A stretch of DNA of 64,000 nt from Psammoneis japonica (lineage: Eukaryota): the NCBI GenBank assembly GCA_008632985.1, contig QPGO01000196.1, forward strand, positions 62,001 through 126,000, given 5' to 3'. Below are positions 19,093-53,791 of the stretch, one piece after another. Both the position numbers and the translations under genes were made by a program. The notes under the pieces are model-generated. The model worked only from the letters and a program-made list of their open reading frames with translations. It did no database searches and was not told the origin of the DNA. Within the stretch, counting starts at the first letter, position 1. Every line of letters starts with the position of its first letter.

Positions 19093-20234
19093 TTAATTCG
19101 GCATTCAAACGACTAGAACAGTCGCTTAGAAGGTTAACAACAAAGGTCCTTCACTATTTAACTTGAAATAAACTATCAAGACTTCCATACGTAACGACAT
19201 GTAATCGATTGCAATAAAATGGAGGCGATTCAAGCAATCGCAACACGAGAAAAACGTAAAGAACACTACGACATCTCGTCGTTATATGTTACTACTATCG
19301 AGACATGTAGTCTCAACGATCTCCTGTACAATGCTAGCCAAATTCACCTCAATAAAGGTCAAACGGCAAAAGCACAACTACGGAACGAAAAGTCTCCAAA
19401 AATGTGGAGCGTGTCAAATCAAAAACTATATTGTTATCATACACGTATTTCAATGTTATACGTTACAACGGAAAAAAGAACTTCTGTCCATAGTGAAAAC
19501 ACTTATAAAATTCCGAAATATGCTGTTTGGCCAACAGATTAATATACACACGGATCATAAGACGCAACGGACAAAGTCATACGTTGACGACTTAAAATAA
19601 AGAATTACTGTCCCAAAATAATATACATCGAGGGCAAGGCGAACATCATCTCGATAGACGCAATCAGCCGACTTACTATAAAGAAAATTGAATCCTACGA
19701 CAATGTCCTACCGTTAAAACAGGATAAAGACATTCCCTCCAAATTGGCGGACGCGACATATCATACGAACACTTTTTGTGGAGGCGAGCGAGATCGAAAA
19801 ATGCTCATGTCATAAGGATAAATCGCCTTATTAAAGGACGGTTAGAAAAAAACTCTGTGACAGATTGGTGTGTCATACGACATTACAGTGTCCACTTCAC
19901 ACTGGCAAAAGACAATCTCACAACACCCGTATCGTTGTACTGTACAATGTACGAGGCAAGACATAAATAACTTATCATGTCGACACACGAGATGTGCCAA
20001 AGATTCAGAAGAAGAAAAGAAATGTGGACGTTTATCCACATAGTGCACGAAAGCAGTGCCTTCGGAATGACATAATAACACCGGCATGTCAAAAAGGAAA
20101 CGTCCAAATGACGGTTAACATCCAACTGATAGATGGTTGAAGTACAAAAATCCATAATGGAATTCATAACCATCACAGGATTAATTATCAAGACGAAATG
20201 GTCGTGTCCTTGACCATCGTTAATTACTACTTAA

Positions 20235-20628
20235 GGGTGGTCGGTTGCCACTTTTTTTAGCTCGAATTCGGCCGAATAGCTCGTATTTTGCATGATTTTT
20301 CCTGAATTTCACCGTGCTTCACCGTGGTGAAAACAACAAGCCATAAGTCTGTGACAGAGGTGGTCCGTCTACCAACTCTCATTTATTTTATGTTTGTCAT
20401 GTATCAAAGATTGTATGTACATGAAAAGTTGGTAGACGGCAAACTACGTTTTTGAGAAATGTCGATGATTGTCATCATCGTCGTGCTTCGGTCGCGGTGG
20501 TGATGGTTCTCGTTTTCGTGCACGATCGGGTGTGACTATGAATAATTCTTGTATTCAAAAATAAACACCATAAAAAACCTTATTCAAATGCAATGGTAAT
20601 TTTAGGATAAACGCGGGGATGACCCCCC
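20235..20628. mobile_element. Small TTAA-flanked DNA element with GGG...CCC termini (Kolobok- or Harbinger-like)
   Basis: TTAA|GGGTGGTC...GACCCCCC|TTAA. The segment is absent from the homologous N1 site at ~8060. Confidence 0.75.
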
Positions 20629-21988
20629 TTAAGAAACGTGGTAGTGCAGCAGAGCAATGTGGCATGTGAAGTAAGCCCGCCAAACTACACGAAATCCACA
20701 AGCAAGTAAGTGAACGCCATAAACAAGAGAGCACATCGAGTGCTGGGCAATGTGCCATGTACAATCGACACCATGAAAAAACAACAGGACAATTGGTCCT
20801 TGTTTTCACATGAACAACAGAACGTCAGAGAGAATGCTCGACGCAATGCTGTGTGTGCACATGTATAGAGCGTGAGACAAACAAGGCACTCTCGAAAGAC
20901 ATGCTGGAACATCATCAGCAGCATGCAGCAATTGCAGTACATCCTACGCATCATACTGCTACGCAAACTACACCTGGACAATTAGTCTTCAGAGACATGA
21001 CATTTAACGTCCAACATGTCGCAGACTGGAAATTAATCCAGCAGCGAAAACAAGAAATCATAAATAAAAATAACGTTCGAGAGAATGCTCGACATGCTCC
21101 TTATACGTACAGAGCAGGAGAGAAGGTGCTACTCGAAAAAGACTCGCAGAAGTTAGAACAGCCCTATGTTGGACCGTATGTAATAACAACGGCACACACT
21201 AATGGCACAGTACAGATCAAACGCAGTGACGTCATTGACACTGTCAATGTCCATCGGATAACACCGTTTAACAACTGACTCTAATGTGCAATTAGGGAGG
21301 CGAATGCAACATGCGTTGTTATGTACGTATTACATGTGTATATCTATATATTTTAAATAAAAGTACACTTCAATCGTACGTCAATCGTGGGTTCGTACGA
21401 AGTACAGATCGGTCACGCAGATAAATTTATGTTCCAATCGTACGTCAATCGTGGGTTCGTACAAAGGACAGATCGATCACACAGAGTTGATCAGATGTCG
21501 AAAATTGCAAATACGATCGATTGACGATGTTGACATCTTACGTGTCAACAGCAATCGTATCCGGACAATCTGTTGTCACGAATATATTCTCCGAAAGGCC
21601 TTTTGTCTGTAGAAGCAGTGCAGAAGCTTTAGGCCATTGAGAACTCGTTCGGAGAAACCAAAAATCACAGAGTAAAATTTAATCTCATAATTATCACTTT
21701 TCACACTTGATTCTACTTTCGTTTATACTCATTCTTCGAGCACAGTGCAGTGGTGAGGTATGCGTGAGAAGGGTGGAGGACTCCAGGGATGAGTGGAAGT
21801 AAGGGCGTACTTGGACAGGTCACGATACACCGCTTGAGAATCAGAGGAGCCGACGTATTGACGAACAAGTGCCTTGCCTTTGTCATTCTGCAAGATCCGT
21901 TCGAACACTGCGAACATGTACTTCTGTTGTTCATCAAACAGGGCCTTGTCCTCAGCTGTAGAGGGCTTGTACGTCGGATCGAGAATGC

Positions 21989-22378
21989 GACGCGTTCCAG
22001 GTCTAGGTGGGACCTCGCACTGCTGAACTGTGACATCGACAGTTTTTTGAATCTCGTCGTATGTCGCGCACGTAGATTTCTACGTGATTTTTTCGATATT
22101 TTGTGTCATTTTACGGTACACTTATTGAGCGATCCGTCCAACAACTTTTGACATTTTTTGTTACAGCGCGATTCTATAATGTCTTAAGAATCGCGTAGGG
22201 CAGGCGAATTTGCAAAAACGTCGAGTGGTAAGAGGCCTAATTGTACCACAAACTTGGCCGTTTATTTGATGTTGAAGATAAATATATCCATTAATTAAAT
22301 TCTCGTACTACGGAGCTCGCACGTAGAATTCTACGGGCCCAATGTCACACGGAGTCCCACCTAGGGCTGGAACGCGTC
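21989..22378. mobile_element. MITE family M, copy 1
   Basis: TIR GACGCGTTCCAG..CTAGGTGGGA and 4 bp TSD ATGC. It interrupts copia gag. Confidence 0.92.
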
Positions 22379-25300
22379 ATGCGTGCAACGTCTTGGGAGC
22401 GGGCCTGTGCGATGATGGAGGTGTGCCACGTGTGCCACTGTTTGTCGGACTTGAGAAGCGCGAAGGTAAGTGGGTCGCGTTTGATGCCTCGTTTAAAGTC
22501 ACGTACGGGATCACGTGGTTTGGGTGGCAACGAGCCAGGAGTGGGAGCAGATGGTGCTGTACCCATGGAGAGGGACGCCACATACTCTCAGGGCTAAGAC
22601 GATAGTTGGTGAACTCCTCTTGTGTGAACAATTGAGGGTCATTGCTAACATCCGCACCACTGCGCGCTTTTACCGTGTACAGGCTAATTAGCACAGCTAT
22701 CTGTGCTTTGTAACCACATAGCAAGGGCATTTGATTGGTGGGCATTTGATTGGTGCCGTCGTTGTACACAAGGGCATCCAATTGCGTTGGAGTAAAAGTG
22801 AAAAGGTCCTGATACGAATCAGTTCCATCAATGTTTAGGGCTGAGCGCAATGGACTGTCTGTGGCTTGATTCAGAACAGTGCCTAGAATGTGCTCGAGGC
22901 CATTGATTTGTTGTTGCCTGGTGAGAACCATGTTGCAGCTAGGTGGATGTCGGAACTAGCTAGAGTCCGAGTGTGGGCTTGAAATGACTTGAAACTTGAC
23001 TTGAATCTTGACTTGATGTCTTGCACTATCTCAAGAGTCAGAAACCGCCGGGCTATGCTATCCCATTCGTAGTTAAGTGCTAAGCTTCCTATCCGGTCCG
23101 TAGAGTTGTGCCGGCACATCCGAACCCGCAGCTGGTGATGCTTTGGGTTGCTTGAGAGCGGAGCAATGGGTTAAAAGCCCCTGCTGACAAGCTAACCAGA
23201 GGTGGACAAGACCTCTGAACCGTTCTTATTTTATGTCGGTTGGATAACCCAATCAGGCCGGCCAAATTTGGCACTGTGGAGGGATGAACAAACGTGGGAA
23301 ATGCACCCTCGCCCCAACGCAGGCTGTGATCACGAATTGCTTCCTCTCACAGTTGTCCTCGTGGACCCTGGAGGACTGTAGAAGACCAGCAATCCAGTGC
23401 AGATACGAGGCGGTAGACTTGGCGTGCGTAGAGCAGAGCCAGAGTCAGGGATTTATGTTGTGTGCGCGTGAACGCGTGCCGATGTATTGGCAGGATCCGC
23501 TGCAAGGAATCTGGAATCTCGGATGTCTGAGAATTCAGGAATTCCTGGCCAAACAAATATCCGTTGAACAAACACATCCAATGATGGGAGGCATCGGACA
23601 AATCCAAACGTGTAGATTTAATCCAGCATTCAGCAGTGAAGAAGGTAGACACACACTTCCACCGCCAACGGTGCGCATCGTCGAAAATTTCTCGATGACG
23701 ATGATGAACGCTCAATGGACAATAAAGAGCAAGACTGTTAATCTAACAGAAAATGAAGATGACTGGGTGGAAGAAAACAATAACTCCTTACTGCTGTCTA
23801 AATGGCAGATGAGTCTCCGTGCAGAGACCGTTACAGGAGCCGAAAGACTGGTGTCGTGATATCGGTGCTACTGTTGTTATTCTTGTGAGCCGAGTGGCTC
23901 GAAAGCAAACTACATCGCGCGACGCCCGCGGAACTAGGAGCACACATAATTATGTGTGATAAACTAAAATCTTGTTCAAATCCTGTCAAAATAATTGTTG
24001 GCAGTTGCTGGTGCCTCTAATGCCGTCGTCGCTTGATGCCACCCTTGGCTTTGCTCTCTTCTACCGATGCCACGTGGGCAGGTAGGGCCTAGACCTGTTC
24101 GTTCTTGAATGTAAACAAACTATTCTAGAGCTATGACAGCAGTGCTTGCACTCCTTCGATTAGTTTAGTGGTGTTGTTTAGGGTGTGCATTCAGAGACGA
24201 AACTTGCACCCCTTCCTGTCTACCTGCTACTCAAACCAAACATACATCTATTGGTGGAGAAGGCGCAAGTAGCCAATTCGTTCTTAAAGCGAGCAGACGG
24301 CAGTGTAGATAAGCCTCTGGTAGCACAACAATGAGCCATCATCATTGGCGATTCAAAAGTATGATGTCAATTGATTGACAGAAAGCTGCAATCCTTAAAA
24401 TCGTCTTGTCCTAAATTGCACCCATTAAAAGTGCTCCCACAATGCCCTTGCTGATGCTCGGTGGCAAAGAATGACTTGGGTTTGCAAGATCATGACAAAC
24501 GTCAGTGTTTTTTGCCAAAGACTTGGATCCGACAAAGTGATTGAGATTCTCGTGTCCAAACGGAGCTTCGGGAGTTTGCAATCCTTGAAACGTCTTGCAG
24601 GCTGGTACAGAACCGGGATGCACGGGCTTTATTTTCGTCCTTGAGTTGCTTCAAGTAATTTATAAAGTCGGGAAAGGGGTTGGGCTTGACTGCCATGTTG
24701 GCATTCCGTTTCGTACAAATTCACCCCGTCAGCAACAATGTTGTTCTCTTCCGTCAAACTCGAAACCCCGTTGACACTGCCTCACGGCTTCTTCAATTGT
24801 CTACCCCCATTTTCGACTCTCTCATCATTGATGTTGAATTTTGTATTGCAGTGCTCTGCCCACAGGTCTACTGGCATCCATTGATTCTGAACGCGAGAAT
24901 CCAAGAACAGTCGATGCATGTGTTTTGATGCAAACGATTTTCGGACATCAGACATGATGGGTTTTTGCACTTCGGCCCTCAGGGAGCTTCACAGGTGGGT
25001 TGGTAAGGTGGGTATAGGTCATAGTGCTAAAAGCCATGGATTTTCAAGAAGCTGTGAGCATCATCGTCGAGGGACCGGGCACGTGATAATTCTTGTGCTT
25101 TTTGTTTTCATTACAGCAGTGGTTGCAACGTCACCTAGTGGCGCGGGGGGAGGGACAGACGCGGGGCAATGCGGAACTGAGTCATGTAGGTAGGAAAAGG
25201 GATGGATTTCGAGTTGGGGTTTGATGTTTGCGATTGTAGTTTGGTGGAGTAGCGGGTTAGTTGGTCAGCGAGCGACTTGGCAATCACGAGGCTCAGGCTC

Positions 25301-25924
25301 TGTAGACCCCATTGTGATGGTGTTGAGGAGTGGTGGGTTGGGCCAAAGCATTCAGCAGAGATGGTTTGCCAAGTGGCGGTGGCGGCAGGGAGGATGGCAG
25401 ACGGGGATTGTTGGCCTAGTAATTCGATGCGGTGTGGCACCGACACGTAAGATGTCAACATCGTCAATCGATCGTATTTGCAATTTTCGACATCCGATCA
25501 ACTCTGTGTGATCATTCTGTCCTTTGTACGTATCCACGACTGTGGTACGATTGACATGTAAATTATATATAATTATGAATATGCACACAACAGTTGCACA
25601 CTGCATTCGCCTCCCTAATTGCACATTAGAGTTATTCGTTAAGTGGAATAATTTGACGGACATTGACATTGTCAATGATGTCTCCACGTTAACTGAATGA
25701 GATAGGCACATGTACTTTATGACCGAGTGTGCCCTCTCTGATGTGTGTATATTAACTAACGTATTAGATATTCAGGAAGCCGTTAGAAGTCAGTTCCGAT
25801 CAGCGATTGCGCTGATCGGGTCTCTTCTCGGTTCTCCCACAACTTTTTATCAAGTCATCTCAAGCTAGATCTTGCACTGTAATTACAGTCGTTGTTATAG
25901 CTTGTTCATTGCATTATCAACTTT

Positions 25925-27389: not shown

Positions 27390-29799
27390 GAAGAAGGAGC
27401 TGAATGCTCCGGAGCTGAATGCTCCCAATTGCCTATGAGAGAAGTGTTTGTTGAAGAAAATGATTGTGTTTTACCTGAATGAAATGATGAATGTTTTGCT
27501 TTTGATTGTTTTGAAAACCCTGACGAATTGTTACCTGTTGAATTTGAAAATACTGCAGAAAATTACATGAATGAAGAGGGGGATGTGTTTGATCAAGATG
27601 CATTTGAACACAACATTCCTCTCCCCAAAATGAGTTCGCAAGTCTCGCGTACCGCATTGGTTCCATCTACACTACTTGTTGCAAAATCAATACAACGGCA
27701 TGAGTCGAATCGTGTGATGCGTGTTTTGTTCGATTCGGGTGGTTCTCACACTATGATTTCGTCTCAAGTTTTACCTCGAGGAGCCGCACCATCCATTGAC
27801 GAACATGGAGTCCGAGCTTTTCAAACCATGGCAGGTCCTTTCCAATCGGGTCGTTGGGTGGCCTTGAGTGACATCGTGTTACCGGAATTCGACAAAACTA
27901 GGAGGATTGACGGCTGTGTGGCTCACGCATTTGATGCTCCGTGTGCGTATGACATCATTTTGGGTTGAGATTTCTTGGACAAGATTGGTCTCAACCTGAA
28001 CTATGACACGAGGACACTACATTGGCTAGACCGTGTGATCCCAATGAAGGAACCTCGTCATTGGTCCAAATCCTGCAATTGGCATGTGGCTTTAGATCGA
28101 ATGGATGAATTTGATGAAGATTGTGAAGACGAGTTGGACTATGGATACGATGATGGATGTGATAACTACATGCTCGACGCCAAGTATGAAGCAACGGATC
28201 CAGCGGAAGTGGTTCGGAACTTAGATCATCTCATGGAAGAGCAAAAGAAGAAGCTGTTAGCGGTGTTGGAAAAACATTCGACCTTGTTTGACGGAACTTT
28301 GGGGCACTATCCTCATGAAAAGGTACACCTCGAAGTGGATGAAAATGCTGTTCCATGTCACTCAAAACCATTTCCTGTTGCTCGAGTCAATGAAGAAGCG
28401 TTCAAAAAGGAACTAAAGCATTTGGTGAATCTCGGCGTACTTCGACCATGTGGACCTATGGAATGGGCAGCCGGCACCTTCATTGCTCCAAAGAAGGACG
28501 GCCGAGTACGATGGGCACCCGATTTTCGGGAGCTCAACAAGGTCCTTAAGCGAAAAGCACATCCTCTACCAGTTATTCAAGATGTGCTACAAAGGAGAGC
28601 GGGATACAAGTTCTTCACGAAATTGGATCTCACTGTGTTCTACTGCAATTTGGAGCTGGACGATGAAAGCAAGGAGCTCGCTACGATTGCAACTCCGTAC
28701 GGGAAGTTCCAGCATTGTCGTATGGCTGTGGGATTAAAACCAGCTCCGGATGTTGCTCAGTCCATCATTGAAAAGATTTTGCATGGTTTGGATGTTGAAA
28801 CTTACATTGATGACATTGGCGCATTTGACACTGACTTTGATTGCCATCTCTCTCGTCTTGACAAGGTGCTACATCGTCTCGAGGAGAATGGTTTGAAAGT
28901 TAACCCGTTGAAATGCGAGTGGTGTGTCCAAGAAACCGATTTTCTAGGGCATTGGCTTACTCCAACTGGCATTAAACCGTGGAAAAAGAAGGTCGAGGCG
29001 ATCCTACGAATGCAACCTCCACGGGATGCTACTCAGCTCCGGTCGTTTCTCGGTGCAGTGACCTGTTGTCGTAATGTGTGGCCTCGCCGTTCTCACCTGC
29101 TTGCACCTCTGACTGAATTGACAGGCAAGAGTCAGTTCCAATGGACAGAATCATGTCAGAAAGCGTTCAAGGAGATGAAGGCGGTAATCGCGGCGGAAGC
29201 GTTGATGGCCTGCCCTAACCATAACCTGCCATTCCATGTCTACACTGATGCATCAGACTACCAGATGGGCGCCGCTATCATTCAAGATGGTAAACCTGTA
29301 TGGATCCGCCTTCGGAGGGGAAGAGCCTTGGGCCAAGTGGCAAACGCAAAGGAAAAATTGTTCATTTTGAAAAGTTGGATTCCAAGGAACTGTGCACTAT
29401 GCTCGAAGAACGAGTGTAAACGAAAGTAGAACGAAGTTCAAAAAGTGAAAATTATGAGAATTATTTCTACGCAATCATTTTGGGTTTCTCCGAACGGGTT
29501 CTCAATAGCCTAAACCTTTTGTACTGCTCCTGCAGACAAAAGGCCTTTCGGAGAATATGATCGTGACAACAGATTGTCCGGATACGATTGACATTGACAC
29601 ATAAGATGTCAACATCATCGTACGATCGCATTTGCGATTCTCGACATCCGATCACTTCTGCGTGACCGATCTGTACTTCGTACGAACCCACGATTGACGT
29701 ACGATTGAAGTGTACTTTTATTTAAAATATATAGATATACACATGTAATACGTACATAACAACGCATGTTGCATTCGCCTCCCTAATTGCACATTAGAG

Positions 29800-32700
29800 T
29801 CAGTCGTTAAACGGCATTATCCGACGAATATTGACAGTGTCAATAACGTCACCGCGTTTGATCTGCACTGTGCCATTAGTATGTACCGTTGTTATTTCGT
29901 ACGGTCCAACATAGGGCTGTTCTAATTTTTGCGAGTCTTTCTCGAGTAGTATCTTTTCTCCTACTCTGTACGTGTAAGGAGTACGTCGAGCATTCTCTCG
30001 AGCGTTATTTTTATTTATGATTTCTTATTTTCGCTGCTGGATTAATTTCCAGTCTGCGACATGTTGGACGTTAAATGTCATGTCTCTATTGAAGACTAGT
30101 TGTCCTGGTGTAGCTTGCATAGTGGTATGATACGTAGAACGTACCGCAAATGCTACCGCTGATAGTATTCCAGCGAAAGGATCCTCAGCATCTAGAGGTG
30201 TATGTTGCAAATCAAATGTATGGAGCATGTTCCCCAGCACTTGATGTACGCGTTCAATAATTGCGTTTGCTTGTGGATTTCGTGTAGTTATAGGCTTGAC
30301 TTTAATGCCATAATCATCTTGCACCATTTCTCTAAATTGGTGTCCGATGAACTCACTTCCACAGTCATATGTAATTAACGATGGCCAAGGATATCTACTT
30401 AACCATGTTCGTTCTAGCAGTCCAGCTACAGTTATGGACTCCTTATTTGGGATTTCCACGACTTCAAACCATCCGGTTGCTGGATCGATCATTGTTAAAC
30501 ATTTCAGGACTAGGGGTTCTTTCTTTCCCTTACAACGTATTTTGTATGGCCCAATAAGGTCCACACATAGTCGTTCCCATGGTACGGATTCTGCGCACTT
30601 AGGAGGTAAATGTCCACATTTCTTGTGTTTCTTTTTGAATTTTTGGCACGTCTCACATCTCAACACGTATTTTCGTATGTCTTCACGTAAGGTGGACCAC
30701 CACAGGTGTTGTGAGATTGTTTCTTCTGTTCGATTTATGCCAGGGTGAAGAAGGTACGTATGACACCAATCTATCACTGCCTTTTGTAACGTCCTCGGGA
30801 TGACAATTTTATCCTTATGACATATGAGCAACCGGTCTCGCTCGCCTCCACGAAAAGTCTTCGTATGAAACGTCTTATTTGACAATTGGGAGAGAATGTC
30901 TTTGTCCCGTTTTTGTTCATAATCAAGAACTTTGTAATTTAACGGAAAGACATTGTCGTAGGATTTTGGCAGGACCTTTTCAGCTAGCTCTTCTGTGCTG
31001 AGGGTTTCCATAGGTTCTATTTTCTTCACAGTAAGTCGGCTAATCGCATCTGCGACAATATTTGCCTTGCCCTCAAGGTGTGTTATTTTGGGACTGTATT
31101 CTTCTATTATTAGACGCCAACGCATGACTCTGTCCGTTGTGAAATTTTTATGTGTGAGATTTTTGTGATCCGTGTATATATTTATCTGTTGGCCAAACAG
31201 CACATTACGGAACTCTTTTAACGTCTCCACTATGGACAATAGTTCTTTTTCCGTTGTAGTATAACGCGTCTGCGCTCCATTCAGCTTGCGGCTGTAGAAG
31301 GCAATTGGTCGGTTTTTCTGAGTAATAACCGCCCCCAATTGAGAATTACTAGCATCAGTATATATCTCAAAGGGCACATTAAAATTCGGGTATGATAACA
31401 GCATATCTTTGGAGATGATGCGCTTCATATTTTCGAAGGCTTTTTGTTCTGTTTCGGTCCATTGCCACTTTACTTGGGTAGAAGTGAGTTTGGCTAAAGG
31501 AGCTAAAACATGAGATCGTCGAGGCCACATGTCTCGATAGTAGTTGATCATGCCGATAAAGCGTCGCAATTCCTTGCGAGTTTTAGGAGTTGCGATCGCG
31601 TGAATCGCTTCTACTTTTTTTGGAATCGGACTGATGCCCTTACGGGTGACATGAAAGCCTAGATAGTCTACTTCGGGTTTAGCGAAAAAGGACTTCTCGG
31701 CGTTGACCTTCAATCCGGCTTGTTCTAGGCATAAGAACACCGTTTCAAGCTTCTTGAGGTGGTCTTGAAAATCACCTTTTGTAAGACACAATATATCATC
31801 AATGTAAGTTCTGACGAACTCCAGACCTGCCATGAGCTCACTCATGTGCTCTTGGAAAATATCTGGAGCTCCACAGATTCCCATCGGGAGTCTACAGTGC
31901 TCATATTTGCCCCAAGGCATGACGATCGTGCACAAGCGACGTGCATGCGGCGTCAATTCGACATGATAGTATCCCATGTTTAAATCTAGGGACGTTGCAT
32001 ACATGAAGCCTTCGAGCTTCTGTAACATATCCTGAATATTGGGCAGAGGAAACGGAGTACGAATTAACCTCTTATTTAGCTCACGAAAGTCAGATAAGAA
32101 CCGAACTCTACCATTTTTCTTGGGTTGAATAAAGGTTGGAGCCGCCCATTCAGAACAGTTTATTTTTCTTAAGACTTTCAACTTGCATAGTCTTTCAACC
32201 TCCTTACGAGCAGTCGCCTCCAAGGCTTGTGGTGCGGGAAATGGTTTGGCATGATACGGACTCACGCCCGATTTCAACTTCAAATCCACCGGTTTCCCGG
32301 TCCATTTGCCTAGAGAACCATTGAAAAGGTTTTCAAATCTTTTTAAGAGGAAGTTCAGCTGCTTCTGCTCTTCAGGAGTTAGATGAGTAGCTGCTGCAGT
32401 CACATTATTGAGGTTTGCAGAGTGACAGTCTGAGTCAAGGATCCGATTGACCCTGTCATTAAGACCAATCACTGCATGAGATTCCTCAATATGATCGGCA
32501 ATCAACTTAAAAACATCGGCATCGAAGAGTGCATCAACATTCTTCATAGGAGTAGTTGCATCTTCCCATTTAATCTCTTCATTCGAGAAGTCCAACATTG
32601 TCCCAAGACTTGACATTAAGTCGCGTCCCATGATCATGTCATAACGACTCAAAGAAGAAGGGGAGTTGTCAACATGTGCCGTTGTTTCAATCATCTTATG

Positions 32701-33000
32701 TTTGTCAAATTCGGGTAAGGAGAATTGGATCTTACATCGACTGTCAGTCGTAAAGAGCCCTCCTTTGGTTTCCCAGAGTTTGGTGGCGGATACTTTGGTT
32801 CTGAGTTTCCGCGTGAATTTGCGCAAAATTATGGTTGACGATGTTCCGCTATCGAGGAGAACGCGTAGAGGCTTATTTTTCGCTTTACCTAATGAAGCAT
32901 TCATATAGGCGACGACTGCTGGACTAGCATGAATTACTTTGGCCCTTTTTCTGGGCTTCCTAATATCCAGTAGAGCGTAAGACTCCTCTTGCGGTGCAAG
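29800..33000 (-). CDS. pol: Pol of element B (PR-RT-RH-IN), with one premature TAA at 30025
   Basis: LLDSGTS, LDLNMGYY, YIDDIL, YTDAS, HPG..CETCQ, VDLIGP and NPQANAIIER are present. The frame continues after the TAA to a TGA at 29800. Confidence 0.93.
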
Positions 33001-34155
33001 TCATTCCTCAGAATCACTGCGCGTCATTTTTTCAAACTGACAATTCTCCTCGTCAAGGGTGTCAGAATCATAATCTTTGCTCTTGTGCTTTTTATCATTG
33101 TTCGAGGAACTCGCTTTGAGCATTTTTTGAACTGCTTGGATCGCCATAGCATTCAACTCTTCTTTGCGAGCGGCGTTGTCGTTATCGCGACGAGACCACG
33201 TGCGCTTGCCATTTGAACGGCGCCGTTTTGGGTCGGGTTCATAGTTCCCACGGCGTTCTTTCGCAAGTCTTTTGATCGACCAGCACTTGTCCGTGTTGTG
33301 AGTGGATTTCTCGCATGAAATGCACCACTTCTCGGACTGAGATTTTTCGGTGCCATGTTGGTGACCATTTTTGGAACCACGTTGGGAACCACTCTTGGCT
33401 TTTGATGCAGCACCGCCACTGCCATCAGCCTTGGCATGAATGCCATCGAATATGTCTTCTGCGACCTCTAGGCGTTCCAAGAACTCAACCAACTCGTCAC
33501 AGGTATGTTTCAAAATTTCGAAACCCTGGACGGTCGACTGACGCTGCCACTTTCGAGGTGCAAGATTGAAGAGGATGTCCTTGAGCTCGTCGTCCTCGAT
33601 CTTCTGTTCCTTCCCAAAGGGAGGATAGAACTTGAGGTCTTCGTTGACTTCCTGGACCCAAGCAGCAATTTCGCGCACTTTCATGGACTCCGGCTTCTTG
33701 AGATCACGACGCAAATAACGTTTCTGCACCGAAAGTGCGTTCTTGGGAAACACATGCCTCGTGAGATGTTGTAGGCATTTCTCGAAGCTTCCTTCCGCAG
33801 ATTCGTCTTCAAGGTTCGCTGCCGCATTCTCGAAAGCACGTAGAGCGTCTCCTTGGAGTAACACACGCATGAGACGAAACTTATCAGATTGCTTCCTGAC
33901 ATTCTGGCCCACTAGAAGTTGATCGTAGCTCTTGAGAAATTCGATGAACTTGGGGACACCTTGTTTCTTGTAGCACTCGACATTGATGGTGTAGGTACGG
34001 CTATCCTTCTTCTCGGGATGAAAACGTTGCTCCATCTTGAGGCACTGGCTCGGTTTGAGGCTCTTCGGCTCGGAGTTCGATTCCAGCGGTTGAGGAACGA
34101 TTTTCTCCTGCCTTAACGAAGTTTTAGCGTTGGTTACATGAGGTGAAAGCTTCAT
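33001..34155 (-). CDS. gag: Gag of element B
   Basis: Open ORF from ATG at 34155 with LLQGDAL..F, QKRYLRR and a CxxC-H-C knuckle (CISCEKSTHNTDKC). Confidence 0.88.
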   Translation of the reverse strand: MKLSPHVTNAKTSLRQEKIVPQPLESNSEPKSLKPSQCLKMEQRFHPEKKDSRTYTINVECYKKQGVPKFIEFLKSYDQLLVGQNVRKQSDKFRLMRVLLQGDALRAFENAAANLEDESAEGSFEKCLQHLTRHVFPKNALSVQKRYLRRDLKKPESMKVREIAAWVQEVNEDLKFYPPFGKEQKIEDDELKDILFNLAPRKWQRQSTVQGFEILKHTCDELVEFLERLEVAEDIFDGIHAKADGSGGAASKAKSGSQRGSKNGHQHGTEKSQSEKWCISCEKSTHNTDKCWSIKRLAKERRGNYEPDPKRRRSNGKRTWSRRDNDNAARKEELNAMAIQAVQKMLKASSSNNDKKHKSKDYDSDTLDEENCQFEKMTRSDSEE

Positions 34156-35335
34156 CTTGAACTTATTACCTTCTGTGGTGTGTATACACAATGCACTATG
34201 CTCGAAGAACGAGTGTAAACGAAAGTAGAACGAAGTTCAAAAAGTGAAAATTATGAGAATTATTTCTACGCAATCATTTTGGGTTTCTCCGAACGGGTTC
34301 TCAATAGCCTAAACCTTTTGTACTGCTCCTGCAGACAAAAGGCCTTTCGGAGAATATGATCGTGACAACAGATTGTCCGGATACGATTGATATTGACACA
34401 TAAGATGTCAACATCATCGTACGATCGCATTTGCGATTCTCGACATCCGATCACTTCTGCGTGACGGATCTGTACTTCGTACGAACCCACGATTGACGTA
34501 CGATTGAAATATACTTTTATTTAATGTGTAGATATACACACATAATACATGCATAACAACGCACATTGCAACTGAGCAAAGCCGAGGAAGAGGAAGATTT
34601 GGAGTTGGGCGCTTGCAGGTTCAAGTGTTGCCGTGCTCCGGTTGATCCTTCTGATGAGTCTCACGCCGCCTTTTCCTCTCTGCTTGATGAGCCTGAATTG
34701 TTTGAATGCTTTTTGAATTACCCGACGCTGGACGAAATGCCGAATCCTACTGAGATGCTAAGGATACAACAGTTCCAGTTCGAAGACCTCCAACTGAATC
34801 AGCAAAGACAACAAAATCAGCAGCAGTTCGTGGTCAAGATTGTGAATCATCGCCCCCTGATTTGTTGTCGTTTGCATCTGAATGATCCGCCTGGAGCCTG
34901 GAAAATTTGCATTCCTGCTGCGTTGTTGCCGGACACCATTGCATGGTGCCATCACGCATTGGGCCATTGTGGAGTCGTGCGATTGTATGAAAGTATTCGG
35001 ACTCATGTGCATCATCCTGCATTGCATCGACGTTGTAACGAATTTGTTTGCGATGCGTGTCAACGATTTAAACAACTGGGTCCTGGATGTGGAGAGTTAC
35101 CTCAACGTCAAGCACCTTTGGCTCCGTGGACGGAAGTAGCGGTTGATCTCATTGGACCGTGGAAAACACCGATTCAAGACCAAGAGATTGAATTCAGCAC
35201 TCTCACTTGCATTGATGCTGTCACTGGATTGACTGAACTCGTGCGCATTGACAACAAAACTTCTCAGCATGTGACTAACAAGTTTCGCAACCTTTGGTTA
35301 GCTCGTTATCCCAGACCGAATCGATGCATCCATGA

Positions 35336-35727
35336 GACGAGTTCCAGGTCTAGGTGGGACCTCGTATACTGCTGAACTGTGACATCGATAGTTTTTTGAA
35401 TCACGTCGTATGTCGCGCACATAGATTTCTACGTGATCTTTTCGATATTTTGTGTCATTTTACGGTACACTTATTGAGCGATCCGTCCAACAACTTTTGA
35501 CATTTTTTGTTACAGCGCGATTCTATAATGTCTTAAGAATCGCGTAGGGCAGGTGCATTTGCAAAAACGTCGAGTGGCAAGAGGCATAATTGTACCACAA
35601 ACTTGGCTGTTTATTTGATGTTGAAGATAAATATATCCATTAATTAAATTCTCGTACTACGGAGCTCGCACGTAGAATTCTACGGGCCCAATGTCACACG
35701 GAGTCCCACCTAGGACTGGAACCCATC
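35336..35727. mobile_element. MITE family M, copy 2
   Basis: Near-identical to 21989-22378. TSD ATGA. It splits the integrase of element C. Confidence 0.92.
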
Positions 35728-36156
35728 ATGACAATGGTGGAGAATTCATTGGTTGGGAGTTCCAAATGCTACTAAATCAAGCGGGCATTGCTGATGCGCC
35801 GACGATGTCTCGAAATCCTACAGCCAACTCCATTTGTGAACGAATGCACCAGATGGTAGCTGACATCTTACGTACTGTGGTTGTCACTAACCCACCTTTA
35901 AATGTTCAACAGGCCAAGCAGATTGTGGACGATGCCCTTGCTACAGCCTCTTATGCTTTACGATGCTCCCACTCAAGGTCTGTGGGTGTTTCAAGTGGAG
36001 CTCTAGTGTTTCAACATGATATGATTTTGGACTTACCAGTTATCTCTGACCTTGCTACGATGCAAGCCAACCGACAAGCATTGATCGATGAGAATCTACG
36101 ACGACAGAATGCAAAGCGCCATTCCCACGATCATCTAGTTGGTCAAGATGTATTAA

Positions 36157-36602: not shown

Positions 36603-37762
36603 TTAATCAAGTCGGTGGATCCTTCAAAGTTGGAAGAACGAGCCTGTGGTCCGTTTCGAATTGTACAAGTCCATGTCAACGGGACTGTTTCGGTGCTGCG
36701 AGCACCGCACGTTATTGAGCGAATTAACATTCGCCGCATGGTGCCGTATCGGAGTTGAGGGTTTTTTCCCAACGTCTGGGTTCCCTTCTCCGTGCGCATT
36801 GGGTTTGAATTTTAATCAAGTGGTTCCAATGGTGCGCGTGTTCCTTGCACCATGGAGGGGAAGAGTGAATGAGATAGGCACATGTACTTTATGACCGAGT
36901 GTGCCCTCTCTGATGTGTGCACATTAACTGACGTATTAGACATTTAGGAAGCCGTTAGAAGTCAGTTCCGATCAGCGATTGCACTGATCGGGTCTCTTCT
37001 CGGTTCTCCCACAACTTTTTATCAAGTCATCTCAAGCTAGATCTTGCATTAACTGTATTGTGCTATTAGCAATGACTGTTGTTGTTTTATAGGCCAGCAT
37101 AGGGCCGTTTCAATTTCCAAATGTCTTTCGAGAGTGTCATGGTTTGTCTCACGCTCTATGTGCATATATAACGCTCTATGTGTATGCATATATATAAATA
37201 TACTGTAGTATTGCGTCGAGCATTCTCTCTGACATTATTTTGTTCATGTGGACACAAGGACCAATTGTCCTGCTGTTCTTTCATGGTGTCGATTGTACAT
37301 AGCATTCTGCCCAGGAAGTCGCCGCAAAAGCGTGGAAAGTCTGTCGCGGATACTTTCCACTTTATTAATTATATCTATATACAAAAAAATATAACACAAT
37401 ATTAATTTGTTATGAATAACTTATATATTCCTTTTTATATTGCCCTTACAACCTAAGTAATTTTGGTTCGAAACCGTTGAGTGATAATGTTTATATAAAG
37501 TGATAAAGTGTTCATTAAGAAAGGGTCATTATGACCGTTTTTGATCAATGACTTTCCACGATAGAATTACTGCAATGTCTCGCACCTTATTTTTCTGATA
37601 CACAGTATTAATGAACCTATTAGATATAACGGAAGCCGTTGTAACGGGCTTCGCTGAAAGCGACCCTCGTTACCTCGGTCTTTCGCTCACAAATTTTGTT
37701 ATCACTGAAGTCTTTATCTCGTTAGACCTTGCACTGTAATTACAGTCGATTCAAAGAACTGG

Positions 37763-37978
37763 ATGGAGACTAGGAACAATACAAACAAATTGACTAAACG
37801 TGAGAAAAGAGAACTACGCGCAAGAGCAGCAGTTTGGGCTATTGAGCACCAGAAACAAGTACAACAACGTAAACGACACGAACAGAATTTGGCGAGCCGA
37901 GTGCATCATTTGGAGTCAAAGGTAGAGTCCCTGGAGAGGACTATTGAACAATTGTATTCCCTTTTTCATGATGAGTGA
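37763..37978 (+). CDS. Small upstream ORF (ORF0) of element D: basic + coiled-coil
   Basis: 71 aa ATG-initiated ORF similar to C ORF0. Its end overlaps the gag start (ATGATGAGTGA). Confidence 0.65.
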   Translation: METRNNTNKLTKREKRELRARAAVWAIEHQKQVQQRKRHEQNLASRVHHLESKVESLERTIEQLYSLFHDE

Positions 37979-39188
37979 ATCGTTGAAGGAGCCTTGCATT
38001 AGCTATGAAGCTAAATTTGAGCATTCTGACTTGGAGGAAGTGAAATTGACCCAATCGCATGATGACGGTAGTACTCGTACAAAAAAGTGTCCGCGTTTTG
38101 ATGGTACTCATGGCATTGAAGCATTGTTATTCGTTGAGGATCGTTTTCGTAAAATTGCTGTGAAATTGGAGTACACTACTGGCGAGGAGTTGTTCGAAAA
38201 TTTCGAGGAAGTGCTTACGGATACTGCAGAGGACAAGTGGGCGAACTTGACCAATGCAATTGACGATGCCGATAAAACTGTCGAGCGTTTTGATCAGGAA
38301 ATCAATCGTTTTTACTTGTCTTATTGTGATAATGAAGCGCGTGATACGATGATTGAATATTTGTTAACTTTGAAGAAACCATTCAAATCTGAAGTACAGG
38401 CGCATGCAGATCGCATGGAAACCTTGATTCGGTGCTCCAACAAACTACCAGGAAATACTCCTCAAGTCAACGAAGCTCAGAAGAAAAAGATGATATTCGA
38501 TAGCTTTCCTCGTCCGTGGCGTGAGATGTATACTCGAGCAGGACGAGCGATAGCGAACGATACTCTCGCTGAGATCATTAGTTATGTGAACAACGAGAAA
38601 TCTTTTGCTGACAAGAGTAGCAACAAGAAGCAGGACAAGAAGAGGAAAAGCAATAGTGCTTCGTCTCAAGCTTCAAGACGCTCTCGTGGCAATAGTGGTA
38701 GAACGGATCCAGAATCTAGATGCCCGGTACATACGAATCACGACCACAAGTGGAAGGATTGTATTTTGAATCCAGAAAGCCAAAACTGTCGACCAAGGTC
38801 CGACCGTGGCGGTCGTAGCGGAGGTCGTGGTGGAGGCCGAGGAAACTACCAAGGTAGAGGACCCCAAGGTCGAGGCGGTCGTGGCAACTTCCAAGGTCGA
38901 GGACGTGGTAATTATGGTAATCAAGGAGGACATGGAGGCCGAGGTTACGGCAATTATAACAACTCCCAGAATTCTCAAGGGAATGGATCCTATTACCAAA
39001 ATCAAAACGGCACCCAAGCCAACAGTGATACCCAAGGCTATGGAAATCCGGCTGGAGCAGCTCCTCCTGGTGGTTGGCAAATGGAGTCGCACCATTTTGA
39101 TCAAGGAGGGCCTCGTGAGATGCGAGGTGGAAATGGATACGATCAGAACGGTCGTACCCATCAAGGCCAACGAAGTTGGCGTAATTGA
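37968..39188 (+). CDS. gag: Gag of element D
   Basis: Open ORF with a CPVHTNHDHKWKDC knuckle and an RGG/NQGY-rich tail. Homologous to C gag. Confidence 0.88.
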   Translation: MMSESLKEPCISYEAKFEHSDLEEVKLTQSHDDGSTRTKKCPRFDGTHGIEALLFVEDRFRKIAVKLEYTTGEELFENFEEVLTDTAEDKWANLTNAIDDADKTVERFDQEINRFYLSYCDNEARDTMIEYLLTLKKPFKSEVQAHADRMETLIRCSNKLPGNTPQVNEAQKKKMIFDSFPRPWREMYTRAGRAIANDTLAEIISYVNNEKSFADKSSNKKQDKKRKSNSASSQASRRSRGNSGRTDPESRCPVHTNHDHKWKDCILNPESQNCRPRSDRGGRSGGRGGGRGNYQGRGPQGRGGRGNFQGRGRGNYGNQGGHGGRGYGNYNNSQNSQGNGSYYQNQNGTQANSDTQGYGNPAGAAPPGGWQMESHHFDQGGPREMRGGNGYDQNGRTHQGQRSWRN

Positions 39189-42100
39189 CAAGGGACGGAA
39201 GTGCCCAAGTCAGAGCGTGTCGCTCAATCTTTTTATGTTTCGTGTGATCGTGAAGAAAATATATGTTTTAATGTTGATGACAATGTGGGAGACCTGATGG
39301 AATCTTATACTATGAATGAAGAAAAATTGGGCGGCGTTTTGGAGTACGCTGTACCAACCCCTAAAACTACGACTCCTAAACCATTGAATGTGGTGCCAAC
39401 GACGTTGATGGCGGCGCGTGCCATTCAAAATCAAGAGAGTAAGCGAGTGTTACGAGTGCTATTGGATTCAGGAGGTACTAACACTCTTGTTCATTCTCGA
39501 GTTTTGCCGAAGGGAGCGAATCCAACCATGAACGATGAAGGACGGTTGAGCTTTCAGACGGTAGCCGGACGATGTGAATCCTCCCGATACGTTATTATGA
39601 AAGACTTGACATTGCCAGAATTTGACAAGTCAAAACAAGTCGATAGTATTGCGGCTCAAGTTTTTGATGCCCCATGCAAGTATGATTTAATTTTGGGACA
39701 AGACTTTTTGTCGAAAGCCGGAATCGTGCTTGATTTTCGATTTGGAATAATAAAGTGGTTGGAAACGTCGATCCCAATGAAGCAATCCAATCATTGGAAC
39801 TCAGTTCAGAATTGGTTGGATACACTGGAAGACGACGGAGAGGACGAAGACGATGAGGAAGCCTTCGGACAATCTTTTATGATGGACGCCAAATACGAAA
39901 AAGTATCATCCGCGAAAGTGGCGCAAGCTCAAACTCACTTAACTCAAGAACAACGTGATGAGCTACAAGCAGTGCTTGAAAAGCATGAAACCCTCTTTGA
40001 TGGAACGCTTGGTAAATATCCGCATGAGACTGTTCACTTGGAAGTTGATCCTAACGCTGTTCCCTTCCATTCTAAGGCTTATGAGGTATCCAAGAGGGAT
40101 GAAGCCGTTTTTAAGAAAGAACTACAGCATTTATGTAATATTGGCGTACTGGAACCAGTGGGACCAACTGAATGGGCAGCCGGAACTTTTGTAACTCCCA
40201 AAAAGGATGGACGAGTTCGATGGGTATCCAATTTTCGAGAGTTGAACAAGGTACTCAAACGAAAGGTCTATCCTCTACCGATCATTCAAGACGTTATTCA
40301 CCGACGCTCAGGATACAAGTACTTGACCAAGTTGGACCTCACTATGTTTTATTATCATATCGAGCTTGACGAAGAATCCAAGGATTTGTGTGCTATTGTT
40401 ACTCCGTTTGGAAAATTTCGATATTGTCGATTGGCCATGGGTTTGAAAACCTCTCCCGATATTGCTCAAGCCATCATTGAAAAAGTGGTAAAAGGAATCG
40501 ATGTTGAAACTTACATCGATGATATTGCTCAATTTGATGATTCGTTTGATGCTCACATACGTCGACTCGATGAGCTGTTATCCAGACTAGAAGAGAACAA
40601 TCTGAAAATTAACCCACTCAAGTGTGAATGGTGTGTCCAAGAGACGGATTTTTTAGGCCATTGGCTCACGCCTACAGGAGTCCGACCGTGGAAGAAGAAA
40701 GTGGAAGCGGTGCTACGAATGCAACCACCTAAAACTATGACACAACTACGATCGTTTATCGGTGCAGTAACTTATTATCGCAACATGTGGCCTCGTCGCT
40801 CACACGTGCTCGCTCCACTCACGAAGTTGACAGGCAAGAGCAAGTTGGAATGGACCCCTGAATGTCAACGAGCCTTTGAAGATATGAAAACTTTGATGCT
40901 GGACGACACCCTTTGGGTCTACCCGAATCATAACAAGCCATTCCATATTTATACTGACTCTTCGGACTATCAGATGGGAGCCGTAATTATGCAAGACGGG
41001 AAACCAGTAGCTTGCTGGTCCCGGAAACTCAGCGCAGCACAACAGAACTACTCTACGATTGAAAAAGAATTATTGGCGGTGGTAATGTGTTTCAAAGAAT
41101 TTCGAAGCATGTTATTTGGAGCTGACTGTACTGTTTTTACGGATCATAAAAATCTCACCTTTCGTACGCTCAATTCTCAACGAGTTCTTAGGTGGCGACT
41201 CTTCTTGGAAGATTTTGCCCCAACTTTCGAATACGTTGATGGCAAAGATAATCTTTTGGCGGATTGTTTTTCAAGATTGCCGCATATGGACCCTCCTACG
41301 GAAGGGAAGTGTGCTCCTAACAAGGGCAAGCTAATTGATTTTAAGACGATCAACCCTGCTATGCTACCGCATGAAGAAGAACTGGACGACCAAAACAGTG
41401 TGTCTCATTTTTCCTATCGTCGTAAAGAACCATCTCCATTTTATTCTTCTGTCGTGGACGACCCCGAATTGTGTGAATCATTTTTGAACTATCCTTCTCT
41501 CGAGGAAATGCAAAACCCTACAACTGTGCAACGAATTCAAGAGTACCAATTCGTCGACGTGGAGCTGAACAATGTGCGACAACAATATCCAGAACGCTTC
41601 GTTGTGGAACATGTGAATCAGCGTCCTGTAATTTGTTATTGTGCTCGACCGAATGATCCTCCGACTGCGTGGAAAATTTGTATTCCAACAGCGTTGCTGC
41701 ATGATATCATACGATGGCATCATAGGATTTTGGGACATGCAGGAGTGCACCGAATGCATTCCACTATTGGCGCACATTTCTGTCATCCTGCCCTTCGTCA
41801 ATCCTGTGAGAGATTTCATTGTGCTGATTGTCAACGTTTGAAAACTTTAGGCCCTGGACATGGGGACCTACCTGAACGGGAAGCGCCTTTATTACCATGG
41901 ACGGAAGTTGCGGTTGACCTCATCGGTCCCTGGAAAATTGAAATTCAAAACCATGAAATTGAATTCAACGCTTTGACTTGTATTGATGCCGTTTCGAATG
42001 TGACTGAACTTGTTCGTATCGACAACAAAACCTCGTCTCACATTGCTCAACAATTTGAAAATTGTTGGTTGTCTCGTTATCCTCTTCCTAACCGGTGTAT

Positions 42101-42683
42101 CCATGACAATGGTGGAGAATTCATTGGAGAGGACTTTCAATTGTTATTGCAACGAGCAGGAGTGGAAGACGCTCCGACTATGTCGCGAAATCCACAAGCC
42201 AATGCGGCATGCGAGCGTATGCATCAAACTGTTGGAAATGTCTTACGCACTTTGCTTCATGTTTATCCTCCACAGAATGTTGAGCAGGCTAATCAACTAG
42301 TGGACAATGCATTGGCAACCGCCATGCATGCAATGCGATGTGCGGTTTCTCGTGCTCTCAAGATATCACCCGGTGCTATGGTTTTTCAACGTGACATGAT
42401 TCTTGACTTACCGGTCCTAGCCGATCTTGCTACCATTCAAGAACACCGACAAGCGATTGTTAATGCGAATCTCCGTCGAGCCAACGCTAAACGCCGATCC
42501 TACGATTTTCAAGTTGGCGGACAAGTTCTACTCAAGGCTATCGACCCAACCAAGCTCGAGCCACGAGCTCACGGTCCATATCCTATCGTTCAAGTACACG
42601 CTAACGGTACACTTACGATCCAACGTACACCTCATGTGACAGAACGATTGAACACACGTCGCGTCGTACCGTATCATACCTGA
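39189..42683 (+). CDS. pol: Pol of element D (PR-RT-RH-IN), fully open and in frame after the gag TGA
   Basis: LLDSGG, YIDDI, YTDSSDYQMG, FTDHKNL, HAG..CADCQ, VDLIGP, HDNGGEF and NPQANAACER are present. Confidence 0.95.
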   Translation, partial: QGTEVPKSERVAQSFYVSCDREENICFNVDDNVGDLMESYTMNEEKLGGVLEYAVPTPKTTTPKPLNVVPTTLMAARAIQNQESKRVLRVLLDSGGTNTLVHSRVLPKGANPTMNDEGRLSFQTVAGRCESSRYVIMKDLTLPEFDKSKQVDSIAAQVFDAPCKYDLILGQDFLSKAGIVLDFRFGIIKWLETSIPMKQSNHWNSVQNWLDTLEDDGEDEDDEEAFGQSFMMDAKYEKVSSAKVAQAQTHLTQEQRDELQAVLEKHETLFDGTLGKYPHETVHLEVDPNAVPFHSKAYEVSKRDEAVFKKELQHLCNIGVLEPVGPTEWAAGTFVTPKKDGRVRWVSNFRELNKVLKRKVYPLPIIQDVIHRRSGYKYLTKLDLTMFYYHIELDEESKDLCAIVTPFGKFRYCRLAMGLKTSPDIAQAIIEKVVKGIDVETYIDDIAQFDDSFDAHIRRLDELLSRLEENNLKINPLKCEWCVQETDFLGHWLTPTGVRPWKKKVEAVLRMQPPKTMTQLRSFIGAVTYYRNMWPRRSHVLAPLTKLTGKSKLEWTPECQRAFEDMKTLMLDDTLWVYPNHNKPFHIYTDSSDYQMGAVIMQDGKPVACWSRKLSAAQQNYSTIEKELLAVVMCFKEFRSMLFGADCTVFTDHKNLTFRTLNSQRVLRWRLFLEDFAPTFEYVDGKDNLLADCFSRLPHMDPPTEGKCAPNKGKLIDFKTINPAMLPHEEELDDQNSVSHFSYRRKEPSPFYSSVVDDPELCESFLNYPSLEEMQNPTTVQRIQEYQFVDVELNNVRQQYPERFVVEHVNQRPVICYCARPNDPPTAWKICIPTALLHDIIRWHHRILGHAGVHRMHSTIGAHFCHPALRQSCERFHCADCQRLKTLGPGHGDLPEREAPLLPWTEVAVDLIGPWKIEIQNHEIEFNALTCIDAVSNVTELVRIDNKTSSHIAQQFENCWLSRYPLPNRCIHDNGGEFIGEDFQLLLQRAGVEDAPTMSRNPQANAACERMHQTVGNVLRTLLHVYPPQNVEQANQLVDNALATAMHAMRCAVSRALKISPGAMVFQRDMILDLPVLADLATIQEHRQAIVNANLRRANAKRRSYDFQVGGQVLLKAIDPTKLEPRAHGPYPIVQVHANGTLTIQRTPHVTERLNTRRVVPYHT

Positions 42684-43310
42684 GGTTAAGGGTTTTCTCC
42701 CCAACATTTGGGTTTCCCTTCTATCCTCATCCATTGAAATTTAAATTTTTTGAGTCCCGCATGATTCTCGACACTCGAATCATGGAAGGGAAGAGTGCAG
42801 TGTCTCGCACCTTATTTTTCTGATATATAGTATTAATGAACCTATTAGATATAACGGAAGCCGTTGTAATGGGCTTCGCTGAAAGCGACCCTCGTTACCT
42901 CGGTCTTTCGCTCACAAATTTTGTTATCACTGAAGTCTTTATCTCGTTAGACCTTGCAATTACATCGTGGAATACATTCCACGATGCTGTCGTGGAAAGT
43001 GAAGACTTTCCACGATACAATCGTGGAAAGTCATATGACTTTCCACGATGACTTTCCACCTTTCGAGGCTTATGTAAATGCCCGTAAAATAGGGTCATAT
43101 GACAAAATTTTGATCTCATCGCAACGCCTTGATGCCTACCTACCATACAAATCTTGCCATTTTCCAACGATTTTGGAACAACTCCCTCTCCAAAATCCAA
43201 GCCGTTACCTGCCTGCAAGGCCCAGTTCTTTCCCGCTTTACCGTTCGCCATGTACATGTACACCACTCCACTAGGCGATGTAGTGCATGAACTTCTCACA
43301 AGCGCATACT

Positions 43311-43706
43311 GACGCGTTCCAGCCCTAGGTGGGAGCTCGTAGCACTGACGTGTGACACAAATAATTTTTATCATCCGTCGTATGTTTCGCACGTACATTT
43401 CTACGTGTGATATTTAAAAAAAATTGTCCAGACTTGCTGTTTTGCGAAGCCCCAGACGTTTTACATGACGCATTTATAGAAACAATAATGCGCCAGTTAC
43501 ATTCTTCAATGTCTGAAGAATGTAACTGGCTAAGTAAAAATCGATGTACTTCAATCATGTGCGAGTTTTTGCGTTCGCAAAATTGCCTCATTTTCTGTTG
43601 GCGAACATTGACATTCTAATTACCGTATAATTTTACTACGGAGCTCGCACGTAGAATTCTACGGGCCCAATGTCACACGGATTCCCACCTACGTCTGGAA
43701 CGCGTC
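43311..43706. mobile_element. MITE family M, copy 3
   Basis: TIR GACGCGTTCCAG..TAGGTGGGA. TSD TACT/TGCT. The empty site is seen in the duplicated segment at ~54982. Confidence 0.9.
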
Positions 43707-53738: not shown

Positions 53739-53791
53739 CCTCTTACATGACAACCCATGATAGGAAGGGGGGTGTTCCCTAACCGAACCCT

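Follow-up and report, generated by a model that had tools for sequence, protein, structure and literature searches.

What could start reverse transcription in a retrotransposon that carries, in the place where a primer-binding site (PBS) would be expected, a sequence complementary only to itself? The question is raised by a stretch of 64,000 nt of the Psammoneis japonica genome (contig QPGO01000196.1, positions 62,001 to 126,000 of the forward strand; hereafter the window), in which four related Ty3/gypsy elements with long terminal repeats (LTRs), designated B, N1, N2 and N3, have the perfect 12-nt palindrome TGTGTATACACA next to the 5′ LTR. The start of reverse transcription is a defining trait of retroelements, and to our knowledge only two established priming solutions exist among LTR elements, a host tRNA and the fold-back of Tf1. 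Comparison of the B/N family with a second lineage of the window and with relatives from public contigs revealed twelve different perfect palindromes in the same slot, and their pattern of change points to selection on self-complementarity rather than on a particular sequence.

The B/N elements are Ty3/gypsy LTR retrotransposons. Their LTRs (TGCA…TGCA) are paired, have TG…CA termini and are flanked by 4-bp target site duplications (TSDs; CAAC for N1, GTGG for N2, ACTG for B and ATTG for N3), and the pol product of B has the domain order reverse transcriptase (RT)-RNase H-integrase (Pfam matches RVT_1 at 293-451, RT_RNaseH at 540-635, Integrase_H2C2 at 734-790 and rve at 809-909). Since the LTR ends are fixed by the LTR pairs and the TSDs, the spacing between the 5′ LTR and the palindrome is exactly one base. 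Read on the element strand, each of the four copies runs LTR…GAGCAT(A/G)GTGCA, then T, then TGTGTATACACA, then CCACAGAAGGTAA; N1 and N2 lie on the plus strand, and B and N3 on the minus strand. Exact matches to TGTGTATACACA occur in the window only at 4501-4512 (N1, +, 1 nt past the LTR), 15999-16010 (N2, +), 34179-34190 (B, -) and 53000-53011 (N3, -), as the initial annotation had claimed. In B, a single T, a pyrimidine, at 34191 separates the terminal CA of the LTR from the palindrome in the PBS slot, and CCACAGAAGGTAA, which is invariant in the four elements, occupies 34166-34178 (both on the minus strand) as part of a 36-nt leader that precedes the gag ATG.

When one mismatch is allowed, five TGTGTATACACA sites are found in the window, with 0.22 expected, and none of 100 shuffles reached five. 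The one inexact match, at 49308, falls within decayed pol sequence; it is not conserved in the other copies and was rejected as a 3′ partner of the palindrome. Since the sites in B and N1-N3 are homologous copies of one family, their excess was inherited rather than arising four times over, and the number of sites alone is no evidence of function. Perfect 12-nt palindromes are also not rare per se, there being 34 in the window.

We aligned the LTR and leader regions of B and N1-N3 (345 columns). None of the 12 columns of the palindrome is variable, and they are part of an invariant run of 31 columns (GTGCAT…CCACAGAAGGTAA), the longest in the alignment. Next to the 12-mer, 1 of 12 columns upstream and 0 of 12 downstream are variable; further out, 29 of 150 upstream columns and 57 downstream columns vary. 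The conserved unit is thus the end of U5 together with the start of the leader, not the palindrome alone. Across the four copies of the window the palindrome is no better conserved than its immediate flanks, and this comparison formally goes against the proposal that the palindrome is singled out by selection. Two arguments made earlier from the same four copies carry little weight as well. The two TpA steps within the palindrome had been considered notable for being intact; with decay to CpA or TpG seen at 11 of the 84 TpA copy-sites of the alignment, chance alone would leave all eight copy-sites intact in roughly a third of cases (P about 0.33). Constancy of the palindrome in coding-dead copies had been offered as further evidence; selection does not act on dead copies, and the LTR pairs of N1 and N3, at 98.6% identity, mark these two as young. 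The gag and pol frames are open in B, and N1-N3 contain only short open reading frames (ORFs).

A second lineage of the window, represented by elements C and D, was said to carry a different palindrome at the equivalent position, and this is indeed the case. In both elements, CTGTAATTACAG directly follows the LTR end …TTGCA (0 nt), at 25877-25888 in C and at 37734-37745 in D (both on the plus strand), and it extends to 14 nt when the A and T on either side are included. C has the TSD TTAAC and a 5′ LTR at 25694-25876, and B is nested inside it; D (37571-42958; TSD ATTAC) has open gag and pol frames. The pol products of B and D are 39% identical. Within the C/D clade, the same 12-mer is kept at 59-63% RT identity while the flanks differ.

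Relatives were collected from public contigs. Five IMG/VR scans with pol alignments returned the same six loci (L002-L007), each of them circularly assembled with one LTR (terminal overlaps of 87-127 nt), and one scan of GTDB genomes returned 34 loci in metagenome-assembled genomes (MAGs) labelled as bacterial (L008-L041). Nine of the 34 MAG loci (L013, L014, L015, L019, L024, L025, L029, L030 and L031) cover the junction between LTR and gag. The other 25 are too short, start inside gag, are nested or are chimeric: L017 retains only 34 nt upstream of the gag ATG, its first bases being ATTCAG, in L018 and L039 gag is already open at the contig start, upstream of L041 sits another element on the opposite strand, and L020 is joined to high-GC bacterial sequence after ~750 nt. 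L013 and L020 are located at the ends of 251-kb and 145-kb “actinobacterial” contigs and therefore look like chimeric joins. A distant locus from the metagenome scan, L001 (20% identity), was not used. It can be seen from this collection that eukaryotic Ty3/gypsy elements are filed as viral genomes, in the form of circular one-LTR sequences of 4.9-5.8 kb (L002-L007), or within bacterial MAGs (L008-L041).

A perfect palindrome of 12 nt (14 nt in L006) was found 0-1 nt after the CA of the LTR in all 15 covered junctions (6/6 from IMG/VR and 9/9 from MAGs). The elements share a layout that consists of a polypurine tract (PPT; GGGGRRGCGAR-like), TG…CA, a pyrimidine and the palindrome, mostly 20-50 nt before the gag ATG. 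The base after the terminal CA is a pyrimidine (T or C) in 12/12 lineages; in two of these it is also the first base of the palindrome. Elsewhere in the loci of the relatives, 17 palindromes of at least 12 nt were counted over 76,173 nt, a density of 1 per about 4.5 kb, so that for each element the chance of finding one in a slot of three positions is about 7e-4. Between eight of the lineages, identity of the pol cores is 38-67%.

The two lineages of the window and their relatives together provide 12 distinct 12-mers, which were tallied anchored at the centre, with D included. These are TGTGTATACACA in B/N, CTGTAATTACAG in C, D, L030 and L031, TTTGTTAACAAA in L002 and L014, TTTGATATCAAA in L004, AATAACGTTATT in L003, TCTAATATTAGA in L005, AATAATATTATT in L006, AGTAATATTACT in L007, AGTGATATCACT in L013 and L029, TATCAATTGATA in L015 and L019, AGTCAATTGACT in L024 and TTATAATTATAA in L025. 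All 72 of the 72 pair cells are Watson-Crick, with no G·U pair among them. Each of the six pairs covaries, with 2-4 pair types per position, and this includes the central two pairs. Beyond the 12-mer, pairing falls to chance: the next pairs outward are Watson-Crick in 2, 0, 2 and 4 of the 12 lineages.

The covariation was also scored on a gap-free MAFFT alignment of seven lineages anchored at the LTR end, from which D was left out because MAFFT had shifted it by one base. In this alignment 42 of 42 cells are paired and both sides have changed in five of the six pairs, while the four outer pairs are paired in 28.6% of cases. The covariation score is 0.633, compared with 0.195 +/- 0.056 for shuffled alignments (0/500 as high) and 0.07-0.18 when the partners are slid. 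We conclude that self-complementarity, sharply limited to 12 nt, appears to be what is under selection, rather than sequence, and that this is well supported by comparison of the lineages. The same had been claimed in the initial annotation; it is the covariation across lineages (12 palindromes, 72/72 Watson-Crick) and not the arguments originally given that sustains it. The position of the palindrome suggests, in addition, that it may be a cis-requirement for replication.

In every lineage examined, the palindrome fills the exact slot for the start of the minus strand, 0-1 nt after U5. Since the position of the primer sets the end of the finished DNA, a primer has to anneal to the bases immediately following the spacer, and nothing else next to the LTR is common to the lineages. 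Ten elements were folded. The predicted self-duplex of the site has an energy of -9.4 to -15.8 kcal/mol, compared with 0 to -1.4 kcal/mol for the hairpin, and for five of the ten no hairpin is predicted at all. In predicted homodimers of a 110-nt window around the site, all 12 palindrome pairs are used in 10 of 12 lineages. The central pairs covary, and a hairpin would leave the central bases unpaired, which argues for a bimolecular duplex. Because another copy of the site is the only sequence able to pair there, a duplex of two RNAs is proposed. The 12-mer would thus be a tRNA-independent primer site, a substitute for the PBS that acts via a 12-bp RNA-RNA duplex of two element RNAs; we give this reading an even chance of being correct.

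The proposed course of events is as follows. Two element transcripts would pair through the site, forming an antiparallel duplex of 12 bp. One of the RNAs would then be cut at the 3′ edge of its palindrome, much as RNase H cuts an RNA duplex in Tf1. From the 3′-OH so formed, which would be paired with the first base of the partner’s palindrome, synthesis would proceed across the spacer and U5-R and yield minus-strand strong-stop DNA. At a later stage the 12 primer bases would be copied into plus-strand strong-stop DNA and, the site being a palindrome, this would restore it for the second strand transfer. A mutation in one half-site would produce a heteroduplex at the copying step, and its repair could restore the original palindrome or create a new one altered in both halves. 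Such repair would explain fast change of the sequence together with perfect Watson-Crick symmetry and the lack of G·U pairs. If so, this would be a third mode of priming of LTR elements, beside tRNA priming and Tf1-type self-priming in cis: co-packaged genomic RNAs pair via a palindromic primer site, one is cut and primes the other, dimerisation is itself the priming contact, copy-back in each cycle turns half-site mutations into new perfect palindromes, and the whole is a trait of a widespread clade of algal or protist Ty3/gypsy elements. This fuller proposal is put forward tentatively, with a somewhat less than even chance of holding in its entirety.

Other explanations have to be weighed against priming by a second RNA. 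The palindrome could be a dimerisation site only, linking two packaged RNAs in the manner of Ty1 PAL1/PAL2 or the retroviral DIS/PAL, with priming accomplished by something that was not recognised here. A self-complementary leader sequence is a proven dimer contact in Ty1, the palindrome in the PBS of mouse mammary tumour virus (MMTV) is cited as one (PMC6844567), and both the covariation and the predicted homodimers fit dimerisation as well as they fit priming. However, the palindrome occupies the sole place that gives the correct end of U5, 0-1 nt after CA, no TGG-initiated site is present in the whole 36-nt leader of B, nothing else is shared beside the LTR across lineages, and the lack of G·U in 72 cells resembles a templated site more than an RNA helix, though this last point is only suggestive. 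We consider dimerisation without priming rather unlikely, but to be taken seriously. Snap-back priming in cis, in which the RNA is cut 3′ of the palindrome and folds into a 4-bp stem with a 4-nt loop to prime itself, needs the same self-complementarity and the same position, and hairpins are predicted for some lineages. It appears quite improbable given the hairpin energies and the five elements without any hairpin, and given that the four central bases, the loop of such a fold, are complementary in every case and show covariation. An RNA function may be dispensed with altogether if the palindrome is a symmetric site for a dimeric protein, encoded by the host or by the element, that binds integrated or unintegrated DNA. 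Perfect Watson-Crick symmetry without G·U is how a DNA palindrome behaves, but with 12 sequences at 38-67% pol identity the specificity of the protein would have to change each time, the symmetry stops sharply at 12 nt whatever the sequence, and the palindrome is present only behind the 5′ LTR, in the transcribed leader. Such a site is, in our view, distinctly improbable.

The remaining alternatives require a partner other than the site itself. Either the 5′ end of the transcript could fold back onto the site, as in Tf1/sushi elements, or the site could form a hairpin with a complementary box downstream, as in GalEa elements. The lack of a tRNA site would agree with this, and an 8-nt word of the palindrome is present at position 31 of the B LTR; N1, however, does not have it. 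Duplex energies of the site against the whole LTR were within the shuffled range in 10/10 elements, the lowest fraction of shuffles as stable being 0.065, and a downstream partner was within shuffles in 9/10, with no shared word of at least 7 nt downstream. Moreover, a chromodomain family is not among the five Pfam matches in B pol, which is weak evidence as the C-terminus of this protein is truncated. We therefore regard a fold-back or a two-box hairpin as very improbable. The least probable explanation, which we hardly expect to be true, is that a tRNA, a fragment of one or some other host RNA binds here as primer in the ordinary way. Such priming is the default for LTR elements, and the window, in which ARAGORN found no tRNA gene, offers no host tRNA for comparison; nevertheless, TGG is absent from the first five bases after the LTR in all 12 lineages (0/12). 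Furthermore, a primer complementary to a palindrome has the palindrome’s own sequence, so that twelve palindromes would need twelve host RNAs.

Several points weigh against priming by a two-RNA duplex. One of the elements, L005, does have a downstream partner at the 0.01 level, and tRNA priming is excluded by argument only. The predicted homodimer uses no palindrome pairs in L003 and 11 of 12 in L013, and several of the palindromes are almost pure A/U, which would make for weak duplexes. Transcription start, cut and primer are each a matter of inference, and cutting 3′ of the site would have to be one-sided: were both RNAs cut, the site would survive on neither template for the second transfer. 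As for the comparative material, the LTR ends of the one-LTR assemblies are set by the PPT and the TG…CA termini and not by LTR pairs, the palindromes of the relatives were found by a palindrome scan first and their position was checked afterwards, and the loci from the five IMG/VR scans include no tRNA-primed outgroup that could serve as a contrast.

The nearest published parallel is the feature named Conserved Hairpin Site (CHS) in GalEa elements, which are fungal Copia retrotransposons. It consists of a palindrome of 9-10 nt at the LTR end and a second box, complementary and lying 12-41 nt further downstream, and an A/A mismatch is fixed; the site takes one of two sequence forms in 85% of families, and its authors, who suspect a replacement of the PBS and found no complement in the LTR, propose no mechanism (PMC5445492). 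Bivalve TRIMs have been discussed in the same terms (PMC6934838). The elements studied here resemble GalEa in having no tRNA primer site and a short conserved palindrome abutting the 5′ LTR, as in C/D, in which the 14-mer includes the last A of the LTR. In B/N, by contrast, the T spacer does not pair and the final A of the LTR remains outside the palindrome. The systems also differ in that ours are Ty3/gypsy elements by RVT_1 and domain order, have palindromes of 12-14 nt in 12 sequence forms, and showed no second box.

Self-priming is established in Tf1, and predictions of it exist for the plant elements Tcn1 and TAR (PMC6317226); cutting of the RNA duplex by RNase H in Tf1 is quoted in PMC5445492. 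Tf1/sushi elements and the mode proposed here would have in common tRNA-independent priming from the element’s own RNA, a site of ~11-12 nt next to U5 and an RNA duplex that must be cut. In Tf1, however, it is the start of the element’s own transcript that pairs in cis, and the site that it binds is not a palindrome, whereas here no partner was found when the whole LTR was scanned and the site can pair only with another copy of itself. The PAL1 and PAL2 palindromes of Ty1 mediate dimerisation and the PBS-PAL of MMTV lies within the PBS (PMC6844567). They are similar to the present palindromes as self-complementary leader sequences, here kept by compensatory change and with a dimer that is predicted. 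Ty1 and the retroviruses keep a tRNA-complementary PBS, while here the palindrome is the only candidate in the slot. The diatom elements GyDi1 and GyDi2 (PMC2806351) are Ty3/gypsy retrotransposons of stramenopile algae and may share a host group with B/N; primer sites are not a topic in the main text of that paper, where “palindrom” and “tRNA” have 0 matches and “PBS” denotes a wash buffer only. In the ESM Atlas, the nearest clusters come from Oomycota, Cnidaria and Bacillariophyta, a spread that singles out no host group. No description of a palindromic primer site in Ty3/gypsy was found in the literature searched, a search that subscription journals lay outside of.

The remaining features of the B/N elements are arranged as follows. 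In B, all on the minus strand, the 5′ LTR (34192-34570) is followed, 36 nt past its end, by a gag ORF of 384 aa (33004-34155, from the ATG at 34155) for which no Pfam family was matched, a pol ORF encoding RT, RNase H and integrase (30028-33000), the PPT AGGGAGGCGAA (29774-29784) and, adjoining it, the 3′ LTR (29393-29773), which is 96.3% identical to the 5′ LTR. The pol frame of B stops (end ~30025-30030) about 70 codons before the point to which N2 (near 21050) and relatives run on; the stop codon stands where N2 has a glutamine codon, and B is thus not fully intact either. The 5′ and 3′ LTRs of the other copies are located at 4133-4499 and 8490-8856 in N1 (+), at 15568-15997 and 21305-21749 in N2 (+), and at 53013-53378 and 48743-49108 in N3 (-).

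Contigs of X1, the only DNA run kept as contigs in which the stretch is present (0.47 of its words; runs X2 and X3 are from the same sample), with no RNA run listed as containing it, join across B (29387-34573), skipping 5,182-5,193 nt, and across D (37564-42958), skipping 5,393 nt. Hence other copies or haplotypes with empty sites or solo LTRs exist. The differences between X1 contigs and the window are mostly A>G/T>C (872/847) and C>T/G>A (614/574), a spectrum that, like the TpA changes among B and N1-N3, fits decay directed at TpA. The summed depth of X1 contigs is ~105,000 over 35477-36057, compared with ~2,000-4,000 in most bins and up to ~13,600 over B. A MITE-like element of ~400 bp occurs at 35332-35730, 21985-22381, 43311-43706 (inverted), 53379-53740 and 53827-54188; its ends are inverted repeats (GACGCGTTCCAG…/…CTGGAACGCGTC), its interior holds a 14-nt palindrome, and a contig representing its empty site exists (joint 35330>35727).

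A Copia element (RVT_2, ORF 10741-15174) extends over 10502-23988 on the minus strand, with N2 and other repeats nested inside it. Its LTR is TGACAG…CTGTTA, its TSD is TATTT, and no TGG site follows the 5′ LTR; the LTR end (junction near 23725-23745) is spanned by the interrupted inverted repeat CTGTTA-GAT-TAACAG. Palindromes at 10704 and 23942 were rejected as candidates, as they are inside the Copia LTR. The palindrome TGTACATGTACA, found at 43251-43262 and 54926-54937 and followed by CCAC as in B/N, was likewise not counted: it belongs to two copies of an unclassified 3.3-kb repeat with no Pfam match and lies ~130 nt past the repeat boundary, not at an LTR end.

If a self-pairing 12-mer does stand in place of the tRNA site, it would give these elements a reason for packaging two RNAs and would free them from host tRNAs. 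It would also explain the so far unexplained hairpin site of the fungal Copia elements. For the recognition of the family there is a practical consequence: programs that search for LTR elements and insist on a PBS complementary to a tRNA will overlook or wrongly score such elements, six of which sit in a virus catalogue and 34 in bacterial bins.

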